A DNA stretch of 47,343 nt. Origin: Escherichia phage 1720a-02. Of this stretch, positions 3,001 to 6,000 are shown piece after piece. The stretch lies in the sequence record KF030445.1, one strand, 5' to 3'. The position numbers were made by a program. Positions within the stretch are counted from its first letter, which is position 1; each line of letters opens with the position of its first letter.

Positions 3001-6000
3001 GCCTTTCTCTCCTTTCGGACCGGGAACACCACCTCCTGCTGCAGCCTCTTCTGCCTTTGTTTTCGCTTCATTTGCCACATCCATTGCCGCCTTCACGGCC
3101 TTCGGCGTGGCTGCCTTTGTTTCGTCATTACTGCCAGTATCACTGCTTAACTGCACCACACCTTTCTGCGTCGTGCTGGCATCCCGCTGGCTGACCGTAT
3201 CCGGTTTGTTCTTTGTGCTGTAATCCACCCGCCAGTGGAAATACTGTGTGTCGCCGTAAACCGTACAGGTACAGACCGTGCCATTAATAAACCCCGTTGC
3301 ACCGTATTCGCCAATGGTGACCCGGACTATGGCAGCCTCATACGTTCCCATCACCTCAATGGCGCAGCCACCCAGATTAAGTTTTCCCGGCCCGACATCC
3401 GTGATGACTTTATTGAGTACCGCAGGCAGTGATGCCTTCATCATCCAGTAAGGCTGGTCAAATGCCCCTTTTTCTTTCAGCCAGGCAACAAACTCGCTCG
3501 TGGTCCATTCACCGGCCCCCGTATGAATGTCCCGCCCGTATACTCTGGCTGCTCCCACGGTGTTCAGAAACTTCACCTTATCCGGGATATCGTCACCGTT
3601 TTTCGCTTTCTCCAGGCATCCGTCCGCTTTGTCCATTGCCGCTTTCACCGCTTTCGGGGTGGCTGCCTTCGTTTCATCATCACTGTCCGTTGCGCTGCTT
3701 AACTGCACAATTCCCTTCTGTGCCGTCGTCGCATCCGGTCCGCCCGGCTCGCCTTTTTCGCCCTTCTCTCCCCGTTCACCTTTCACACCCTGAAGCCCCT
3801 GCGGCCCCCTCTCACCACGCTCACCCTTTGGCCCACGCTCACCGGTATCGCCTTTTGGCCCGGGAATACCCTGTGGCCCGGTGTCTCCCTTATCCCCCTT
3901 CGGTCCCCGCGCATTCTCTGCCCGTTTCTTCGCTTCCTCTGCACTCGCCGCTGACGCTTCCGCACGTTTCAGGATTTCCGCTGCCACCGCTTCCAGCTCT
4001 GCAAGGGCTTTCGGGTAATACTGTGCGTCTTCCAGGTCCATCAGAAATTTATTCAGCGTTCCCGGTGCAGAATCCGCCTTCACCAGAATGTCACCCACAT
4101 ATGACGGCGCGTACCCTTCCGTGTTCAGCGTCACCCGGTACAGACCCGGCTCAACATCCATACTGTAACTGCCGGTTTCCCCCGGCTGACCATACGCCAC
4201 CGTGGTGACAATCACCGTCTCCGTTGTACGGCGCGCTTTCAGCTCTATCGTGCATCCCGGTACCGGCTTACCGGCCCCGTCCTTCAGCACACCCGATATT
4301 CTGACTGTCATGGATTTCCCCCATAAAAAAACCGCAGTACCGGTTTCCCGGCCTGCGGTAAAATTTGTGGTTTGTTGGTGTTAAAACGGTGCCATCCGGC
4401 TGACCACCCTCAGCTACCGGTCGGCGGGGGATATTCTCCCCCGCCACGGTTTCTTACTGCTTACACTGTAAGAACGCCGCAATCTCCGCGCCCGCTATCC
4501 GGAACCGGAACTCGCACAGTGAACTGTGGGTGATCCAGATAATGAGCACTACCGTGATACACATCACGGTGGTTTTTAACGGTTTTTGCGACATAACGCT
4601 TGCTCCTTTTACGGAGAGGCGCTAACCTTTCACTTGCTTAGGATGAATGGTCAGGCCTCGGGTTAAACATGAATGTTTTGTCCGGGGCCTTTTCACATCC
4701 GGCCTTCAGGTGTTCCCTCCGGCCATCAGCCAAAGGCACCCGCGCATACTGTACGGTTTTTGTCTCCTTCCGGCAATCCCGGGGCGCGATGTTCAGCGGA
4801 TGCTGATCCCCGCGCTGTTTTTCTTCACCACTATCGCCTGAAGGTTACTGATTCGTGAACTGCCCCAACTGTTATTCTGACGCCGTGAGCTCACGGTAAA
4901 ACTCAGGGTGATATGACCACCGCCAGCTGGCATATCGATGATCCCGCTGAAAATTCCCGGCTCTGTCACTGACCTGCCTGAATAAATCCGGCGTCCATTC
5001 TGATCAACATGCAGGAAGCACTCTGTCCAGATGTCATTACTGGTGCGGGATTCCTGTTTTGACCCGACATAGATTATCGGCGGGATTATAATCTGCCGGT
5101 CAAAGCTGTGATCGTCATACACCGTCAGCGTTCGTGTACCGTTCGCAAGGTAACTACCATCCACCGGAAAAGCCACCCCTGCACATTTCACAAGATCACC
5201 AATAATGTTCTCCGCTTTCAGCGTGCCATTTATCGTGCAGTTCTCCGCTATCACGACATTATTGAGCGTGCCCGAGTTCGCACTGATATGTCCGCTGATG
5301 TCCGCATTGCGGGCCGTCAGCCTGCCCTCCGGCGTCAGGGAGAACGTCGGGGGATTGCCGGACGAGGTGATGCTCACTGCAAACAGTCGCTTCAGGAACA
5401 CGTCGTTCATAAACAGCTGATTCCCCTGCGCCACAAACAGCGGCGTGGTGTTGCCGTTCTCCGGGTTAATCATCGCGATACGGTCCGCCTGCAGCAGAAT
5501 ATTGCTCAGGGGCTGGCCATCAGCATCCTCAATCCCCGCACCTATACCGGCAACATACGGAATGCCGTTTTTCGTTTTCTGCACCTTCAGCATGTACAGC
5601 GCAGCCAGGTCGTTATTTGTGTCTGTCTGCACCCGCTGTATCTGCTGTATGGTGGCACTCTGGTCTTCCAGGGTTTTACTGACCGTCTGTGTGATTTCAT
5701 TGCGGGTTTCTGTGATGGTGGTCTTCATCTCTGCCATCTCATCATCAAGCTGGCTGTTATCAATCAGCTCCCACATCCCCTGTGCCAGATGTGTCTTCCC
5801 GATTTCTCCTCTGAAAAAGTCCAGATACCCTTCCGCATCATTGCTCGCCCGGCCACTGGCTTCCACAAACGCAGATTTCCCCACCAGGTTGACGCTGCGC
5901 ACATAAAACCAGAAATCCTTCCCCGGCCTGATGTGCGGGCCGGAGACGCTCCACTGGCTGCCGGTACCCAGATAACGGGCTGAGGTTTCCACCTGTGCCG

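Follow-up and report, generated by a model that had tools for sequence, protein, structure and literature searches.

A hok/sok-type toxin and antisense-RNA module between the J and side tail fibre genes of a lambdoid Escherichia coli prophage

What fills the gap that separates J, the tail-tip gene, from the side tail fibre gene (stf) in an Escherichia coli prophage, and how might it be controlled? The question is raised by a first-pass annotation of a stretch of 47,343 nucleotides (nt) from Escherichia phage 1720a-02 (sequence record KF030445.1; the whole stretch is called the window below), which proposed a Hok/Gef-like toxin gene in this gap. The gap holds a hok-type module, and the locus is a complete Hok/Sok-type toxin plus antisense-RNA module, of a known kind and in a known kind of place. 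It is very probably a type I toxin-antitoxin module of the hok/sok class, borne as a self-contained moron, an accessory gene with promoter and terminator of its own, between J and stf of a lambdoid prophage, in the slot of lom in the phage lambda map. The toxin gene is not new: RefSeq, PHROGs and a dedicated Hok catalogue all list it, and little is gained by annotating it again. What is added here is the RNA anatomy of the module and the absence of the leader open reading frame (ORF) mok. In the RefSeq and phage records examined, neither Sok and its promoter nor the fold-back elements of the hok mRNA are annotated; all of them can be placed within a few bases.

The toxin gene and its neighbours

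The ORF at 4793-8311 (minus strand) is gpJ by the annotation of a 100% identical RefSeq locus, and that at 2584-4311 (minus strand) contains a prophage tail fibre N-terminal domain, collagen repeats and fibre repeats; on these two grounds J and stf do flank the gap, as had been supposed. Between them, and on the same strand as both, lies a hok-family toxin gene of 46 codons (4454-4594, minus strand), assigned by Pfam, PHROG, the identical RefSeq locus and the Hok catalogue. Its product is MSQKPLKTTVMCITVVLIIWITHSSLCEFRFRIAGAEIAAFLQCKQ, with cysteines Cys27 and Cys44. The ORF was already marked in the first-pass annotation together with a ribosome-binding site, which is present as the Shine-Dalgarno sequence AGGAG at 4607-4603, 8 nt 5' of the ATG. 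The accompanying statement that the gap contains no ORF of 60 amino acids (aa) or more has to be dropped, since mechanical plus-strand ORFs of 60 aa (4202-4384), 64 aa (4647-4841) and 61 aa (4673-4858) overlap it. None of the small ORFs in the gap other than hok (59-64 aa) matches a Pfam family, and tblastn with five Hok proteins finds no second hok gene within the window.

The Hok/Gef identity of the ORF, initially read from its hydrophobic helix and signature residues, is borne out by the Pfam profile HOK_GEF (PF01848), which it matches with 40.9 bits against a curated cut-off of 22 (E 1.5e-10, profile positions 8-42 of 42). As a sequence match, this is far outside the range of chance. The 46-aa protein also belongs to PHROG 251, 'MokW-like host killing', category moron (E 5.4e-21). 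It has the length of the family and its N-terminal hydrophobic helix, followed by the S/L-C-E ... E-x-A-A-F pattern that defines Hok/Gef proteins, and residues S25, C27, E37, A39, A40 and F41 are invariant in an alignment of the R1 Hok with nine members of the subfamily. TadA edits some hok mRNAs; its gene, tadA, is found nearby in the identical genome, and the Hok of the window has Cys genomically encoded at both editable positions.

At the identical locus in E. coli RefSeq, the ORF is annotated as WP_000078857.1, 'Hok/Gef family protein', between gpJ and a tail fibre gene. The arrangement recurs in 119 of 5426 complete E. coli genomes compared by megablast with positions 4250-4850 (at least 80% coverage), and the exact protein is present on 482 contigs, where it is named Hok/Gef family protein. 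In the Hok catalogue of Escalera-Maurer et al. (bioRxiv 10.1101/2025.08.07.668861), the alignment files list the same sequence as peptide 1570. Catalogue cluster 79, WP_000078857.1 and PHROG 251 show no difference from the window toxin at the protein level. The representatives of cluster 79 are 79_1563 and 79_1555; the former, two residues away from the window peptide (M11I, Q46R), was cloned for toxicity assays. According to the text of the catalogue, 42 of 45 assayed Hok homologues, which included representatives of clusters 79 and 72, were toxic, and the three non-toxic constructs that it names do not come from these representatives. Going by that text, 79_1563 would be toxic. The catalogue deliberately left mok, Sok and mRNA structure unanalysed (10.1101/2025.08.07.668861).

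The folding of the hok mRNA and the overlapping Sok gene

The toxin gene is embedded in a predicted hok-type mRNA of about 417 nt (4325-4741, minus strand) that runs from a putative +1 at GGGUGCC, position 4741, to the U-run of a terminator. Its promoter (4748-4776, minus strand) was placed by sequence and homology, with a -35 box TTGCCG at 4776-4771, a 17-nt spacer and a -10 box TACAGT at 4753-4748. The -35 box starts 17 nt past the stop codon of J (TGA, 4795-4793), and in the alignment the -10 box falls on the TAGAnT of 13 related loci, invariably 7 nt ahead of GGGTGC; the layout is common to hokC, hokW and hokB. Judged by its sequence, the promoter is weak. The start site is set at about 4741 because this is position 1 of Rfam model RF01794, which bears the name sok but represents the hok-leader strand between the mRNA 5' end and the hok AUG. 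This model matches 4741-4583 (minus strand) over all of its 157 positions (E 3e-10), with a score below gathering. The structured leader is 147 nt long and ends in the Shine-Dalgarno sequence (4603-4607, minus strand), which by sequence and folding is predicted to pair with CUCC at 4616-4613 and overlaps the -35 box of Sok on the opposite strand.

Downstream of the ORF, a GC-rich hairpin, GGCGGGGGAGAAUAUCCCCCGCC (4423-4445, minus strand), follows the stop codon directly, and the intrinsic terminator of the mRNA (4325-4359, minus strand) is formed by ACCGCAGGCCGG-GAAA-CCGGUACUGCGGU and a run of seven U, which ends 13 nt ahead of the stf ATG (4311). A stem followed by a T-run is found at the equivalent place in most related loci. 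In a generic sigma-70 promoter and terminator scan of 4250-4850, the sole terminator match was the hairpin after the stop codon, read from the plus strand; the terminator of hok was not called because its stem is bulged. GC-rich hairpins around the ORF had been taken for the fold-back elements of a hok mRNA. The hairpins are real (past the stop codon at 4445-4423, at the terminator, 4359-4325, and in the leader, 4689-4654), but none of them is the fold-back element.

That element lies elsewhere. Positions 4741-4323 (419 nt, the mRNA of about 417 nt plus 2) fold with a predicted energy of -185.3 kcal/mol (z = -8.97 against 100 shuffled sequences) into a structure closed from its 5' to its 3' end. 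A tac-like element at the 5' end, GGGUGCCUUUGGCUGAUGGCC (4720-4741, minus strand), is predicted to pair with the fold-back-inhibition (fbi)-like element UCAGCCGGAUGGCACC (4388-4403, minus strand), which is complementary to the 5' end at 4740-4727, or, once the 3' end has been trimmed, with a ucb-like box, AAAAGGCCCC, at mRNA positions 49-58 (4684-4693, minus strand). The trimmed and nascent folds also contain a Sok-target hairpin at mRNA positions 83-126 (4616-4659, minus strand), the third hairpin of the Rfam model, whose loop CCUAAGCAA holds a YUNR motif (CUAA). For RNAs that end at 4405 or 4410, the minimum-energy prediction is a switched fold in which the 5' end pairs with AAAGGCCCC (positions 49-58) and the hairpin at 83-126 is formed; this fold, with its tac:ucb helix, is that of the Rfam consensus structure. 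The thermodynamic prediction gives no switch for RNAs cut at 4400 or 4395.

Comparative support was sought in modules gathered from the window and from 78 loci, 79 sources in all, in genomes of E. coli, E. albertii, Salmonella, Serratia and Yersinia and in IMG/VR prophages. These yielded 56 distinct sequences, three of them with a defective ORF, and 38 were aligned. The relatives sit at prophage ends or at other positions of accessory genes. Under the RNAalifold consensus of the 38 loci, 98.8% of the cells are standard pairs, a share that drops to 26-46% if the partners are shifted by 1-3 columns, and the covariation score of 0.197 (0.143 +/- 0.004 in shuffled alignments) is reached by none of 500 shuffles. 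The six pairs of GGUGCC:GGCACC are kept in all 38 loci, one of them as 37 G-C and one G-U, and the four pairs that adjoin them have all changed on both sides, in 10-13 of the 38 sequences each. Two pairs of the hairpin after the stop codon show double-sided changes. The start region of hok, AUGUCGCAA, is paired with UUGCGGCGU of the coding region, with six of the nine pairs invariant and 99.4% of the cells paired. From these alignments, the covarying helix that closes the mRNA from 5' to 3' is the predicted tac/fbi fold-back of hok mRNAs. The hok-mRNA architecture proposed for the locus is thus supported, by the Rfam leader match (below gathering), the compensatory changes in the 5'-3' pairing and the predicted switch on 3' trimming.

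An antisense Sok-like RNA had been expected from the plus strand, with its promoter left unplaced. Homology and conservation locate this promoter at 4600-4628 (plus strand), with a -35 box TTGCTC at 4600-4605, a 17-nt spacer and a -10 box TAACCT at 4623-4628. Homology links the -10 box to the corresponding sok region in hokC, hokW and the IncFII hok, and its complement AGGTTAG is kept in 37 of 38 distinct loci. The predicted Sok-like RNA is about 59 nt long (4635-4693, plus strand) and would consist of a 5' tail followed by the hairpin GGCCUCGGG...CCCGGGGCC and UUUU. Folded from a start at 4635 or 4636 it has a predicted energy of -22.0 kcal/mol, with the 5' tail (4635-4652) largely single-stranded. 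Its start lies 41 nt from the hok ATG, and the annotated sokC has 59 nt and an offset of 49; the geometry agrees with both the annotated sokC and sokB. A conserved promoter and terminator thus speak for a putative convergent antisense gene inside the toxin leader. Its RNA is complementary to leader positions 49-107, and this pairing stops some 27 nt upstream of the Shine-Dalgarno sequence of hok.

Among 20 nearly identical E. coli copies, variation clusters at the top of the target hairpin, which corresponds to the Sok 5' tail (window 4629-4651, mRNA positions 91-113), and a second variable patch adjoins the Sok terminator (window 4692-4701, mRNA positions 41-50). At least five alleles of the target hairpin exist (compare loci L018, L020, L023, L024, L025 and L034), and the complementarity of the stem is kept in each. 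Up to seven matching places are found in some genomes. The variants of the target hairpin look like specificity alleles, which would prevent cross-talk between co-resident hok/sok copies.

The module thus resembles R1 hok/sok and K-12 hokB and hokC in the LCE...E.AAF signature of the toxin and in an overlapping convergent Sok of 57-59 nt, and shares with them the 5'-GG(G/C)UGC...GCACC-3' fold-back, the predicted tac/ucb switch and the YUNR target loop. It differs from them in the length of the toxin (46 against 49-52 aa), with about 33% protein identity between the Hok proteins of R1 and the window, in a shorter leader (147 against about 175 nt) and in having no mok ORF.

The missing mok frame and the control of the toxin

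In R1, translation of mok up to the hok Shine-Dalgarno sequence is mandatory for Hok synthesis (PMC9841398). In hokC, hokB, hokW and the IncFII hok an ATG is found at -57 or -58, 7-8 nt past a GAGG, and opens an ORF that runs through the hok Shine-Dalgarno sequence. The window keeps the GAGG (4659-4656), and the codon at the position of the mok start is ATT. The frame of this ATT meets an in-frame TAG 30 nt before the hok ATG, because that triplet is part of the complement of the Sok -10 box TAACCT, and the other two frames are closed too. No ORF with a start of ATG, GTG, TTG, CTG, ATT, ATC or ATA reaches the hok Shine-Dalgarno sequence in the window. The possible equivalents of mok were rejected, since neither the ATT, nor a mini-ORF of three codons (GTG-AAA-GGT-TAG), nor an ATG at mRNA position 72 is conserved; the frame of the last meets a TAA after 10 codons in the window.

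Among the 53 distinct intact modules, 37 have no ATG-, GTG- or TTG-start ORF that reaches the Shine-Dalgarno sequence, and the remaining 16 possess sporadic ones whose non-homologous starts were made by indels. By this comparison, therefore, the lack of mok is a trait of the 46-aa subfamily with MSQK...AAFLQCKQ ends and not a lesion of the window copy. A text search of the literature for a described hok without mok found nothing relevant.

The subfamily includes the 46-aa Hok of Stx phages (catalogue cluster 72; L0129 of 933W, VT2-Sakai 44.5-44.9 kb, and gp62 of Shigella phage 75/02, 'MokW-like host killing'), which shares 63% protein identity with the window toxin. Its module has about 78% DNA identity with the window over 394 nt that span leader, ORF and fbi, and it resembles the window in its protein ends and RNA module and in that most copies lack mok. 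It differs in lying downstream of lom, not directly after J, and in having another allele of the Sok-target hairpin; the Hok itself reads MSQKSLITVT...FLQCKQ.

Identification of this 78% match with the published hokW was rejected, as hokW is another gene of 51 aa located 13 kb away. The 46-aa gene carries the label 'MokW-like' in some records, and hokW is not its counterpart. The hokW-sokW locus of Sakai prophage 5 is likewise a prophage-borne type I toxin-antitoxin locus, with the same leader architecture and TAACCT in the sok -10 region. HokW, however, has 51 aa (MKQQKAM...YESEK), belongs to another cluster and is encoded at 57.5 kb of VT2-Sakai on the opposite strand, and hokW possesses a mok-type ORF of 70 codons with its ATG at -57 past GAGG. 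The Stx2 phages Sp5/VT2-Sakai and 933W hence carry two hok loci, the published hokW (L097, VT2-Sakai 57178-58427) and the 46-aa one without mok (L002, VT2-Sakai 44516-44910). The published single deletion of hokW-sokW left this second locus in place, which bears on the reading of deletion phenotypes.

How might a toxin of this kind be held in check? The mechanism of R1 hok/sok has been described (PMC9841398). From that paradigm and the predicted folds, the full-length mRNA would be a closed, stable and untranslated reservoir, and slow trimming of its 3' end past fbi would allow the 5' end to re-pair with the ucb-like box and the Sok-target hairpin to form. By analogy, an abundant and short-lived Sok would bind by way of its 5' tail and the YUNR loop, with RNase III destroying the duplex; once the supply of Sok stops, Hok would be made and the inner membrane permeabilised. 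Because Sok pairing ends short of the Shine-Dalgarno sequence and there is no mok, control of hok translation would have to be indirect. It could act through decay of the mRNA, or through release of the anti-Shine-Dalgarno strand GCGCCUCUCC, by which the hairpin over the Shine-Dalgarno sequence would be lengthened. Blocking the Sok target in silico does free GCGCCUCUCC and gives a longer hairpin over GGAGCAAGCGU, a weak hint from modelling that Sok-driven refolding may occlude the Shine-Dalgarno sequence.

The gene hok is co-oriented with the late tail operon, and Q-antiterminated late transcription would read through it and collide with the Sok promoter. It is from this that prophage induction or prophage loss would follow as the most likely triggers, the module helping lysis in the first case, by analogy with hokW-sokW, and acting as an addiction module in the second. 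HokW is toxic and is neutralised by sokW, and after mitomycin C treatment sokW is lost and HokW is produced in a RecA-dependent manner (Takada et al. 2021, PMC8621323). A deletion mutant of hokW-sokW releases half as much phage, and hokW-sokW promotes lysis after induction (PMC8621323).

Abortive-infection defence against other phages, in place of lysis help or addiction, is unlikely to be the main role. The moron lies beside tail fibre genes, a frequent site of defence genes in prophages, and exclusion of T4 by R1 hok/sok (cited in PMC8621323) shows a precedent for such a role; set against this, hok shows no enrichment near defence systems according to a section heading of the Hok catalogue (10.1101/2025.08.07.668861), and deletion of the one prophage Hok locus studied, hokW, halved the release of phage (PMC8621323).

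Several observations weigh against a working hok/sok module, beginning with the closed leader frames of the window. Given the need for mok in R1, Hok may never be translated from its native mRNA. The GGAG of the Shine-Dalgarno sequence is predicted to be paired in the free, the Sok-blocked and the full-length states, among which the length of the hairpin alone differs. The match of the leader to RF01794 scores 51.1 bits and the Rfam gathering score is 59, so that the locus is unlisted there. The generic scan called neither promoter (that of hok had 8 of 12 matches where 9 are required), so both were placed by homology or conservation. The protein also falls below the cut-offs of the NCBIfam Hok model NF007279 (35.7 against 73 bits) and the HokA equivalog NF007290 (35.8 against 89 bits); the latter score rules out a HokA orthologue, and these missed cut-offs account for the generic RefSeq name. 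The RNA ends, the processing and the toxicity at this exact locus are predicted, and the role outlined above is carried over from hokW, another Hok in another phage.

Could the locus then be a silent relic, descended from a hok/sok system whose toxin became untranslatable with the loss of mok and which persists as hitch-hiking DNA or as a source of a small RNA or a terminator? The closed frames of the window and of the 37 intact relatives, the ATG at -57 or -58 in all four reference systems, the mandatory translation of mok in R1 (PMC9841398) and a Shine-Dalgarno sequence predicted to be paired in every folded state would all agree with this. The lack of mok is nevertheless subfamily-wide and not recent, and the hok ORF is intact at 50-100% protein identity in five genera. 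Compensatory changes maintain the RNA pairings, each Sok-target allele keeps its stem, and the peptides of clusters 79 and 72 are toxic on expression according to the text of the catalogue (10.1101/2025.08.07.668861). Such maintenance of ORF, pairings and allele stems is what selection rather than decay would be expected to give, and a relic, the main rival reading, appears improbable.

It remains a tentative proposal, which we hold with some reserve, that the Hok proteins of clusters 79 and 72 belong to functional, mok-independent hok/sok systems. In these, Sok would neither cover the ribosome-binding site nor work through a leader ORF; repression would be exerted by decay or by refolding that lengthens the anti-Shine-Dalgarno hairpin, the interchangeable alleles of the target hairpin would set specificity, and, as the gene lies inside the late tail operon, release could be tied to prophage induction. 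Should the native mRNA give rise to Hok nonetheless, this widespread prophage subfamily would provide a natural test of antisense control of a toxin without translational coupling.

That the ORF arose by chance, with hairpins that merely serve as terminators or insulators between J and stf, might be suggested by its shortness and by the lack of promoters in generic scans, and is refuted for practical purposes by the above-threshold Pfam match, the Rfam match over the full-length model and the 56 homologous modules that, save for the three defective ORFs, keep both the ORF and the covarying RNA structure.

Further observations in the window and among related loci

Some relatives of the module are of note in themselves. 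An IMG/VR prophage contig (L048) apparently carries two 46-aa hok modules about 1.1 kb apart (1362-1716, and a tblastn match at 2501-2638). Two hok modules were encountered in Firmicutes-labelled assemblies of a collection with one genome per species, a metagenome-assembled genome of Planococcaceae (L004) and Vagococcus sp. (L005). Their proteins do not differ from one another and are a single residue away from a Salmonella copy, and the assemblies are likely to be contaminated or mislabelled.

Within the window, positions 194-1291 (plus strand) encode yfhH, a MurR/RpiR regulator, and comparison with locus L001 identifies the first ~1.3 kb as host DNA; the prophage end is therefore located between ~1300 and 1870, about 3 kb from hok. 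The side tail fibre protein (2584-4311, minus strand) possesses two collagen-like Gly-X-Y tracts around a duplicated fibre-repeat segment, with two stretches each of Pfam Collagen and Phage_fiber_2. Three clustered tRNA genes (Arg-tct, Arg-tcg and Met/Ile-cat), common in lambdoid and Stx-type prophages, are found at 30233-30484 (minus strand). An Rfam STnc100 match of 142.7 bits, above gathering, lies at 28426-28638 (minus strand). At 37875-38063 (minus strand), Rfam identifies a C4 antisense RNA (82.3 bits) with isrK directly alongside (59.3 bits), both above gathering, which suggest an immunity element of the P1/P7 c4-ant type in this prophage.

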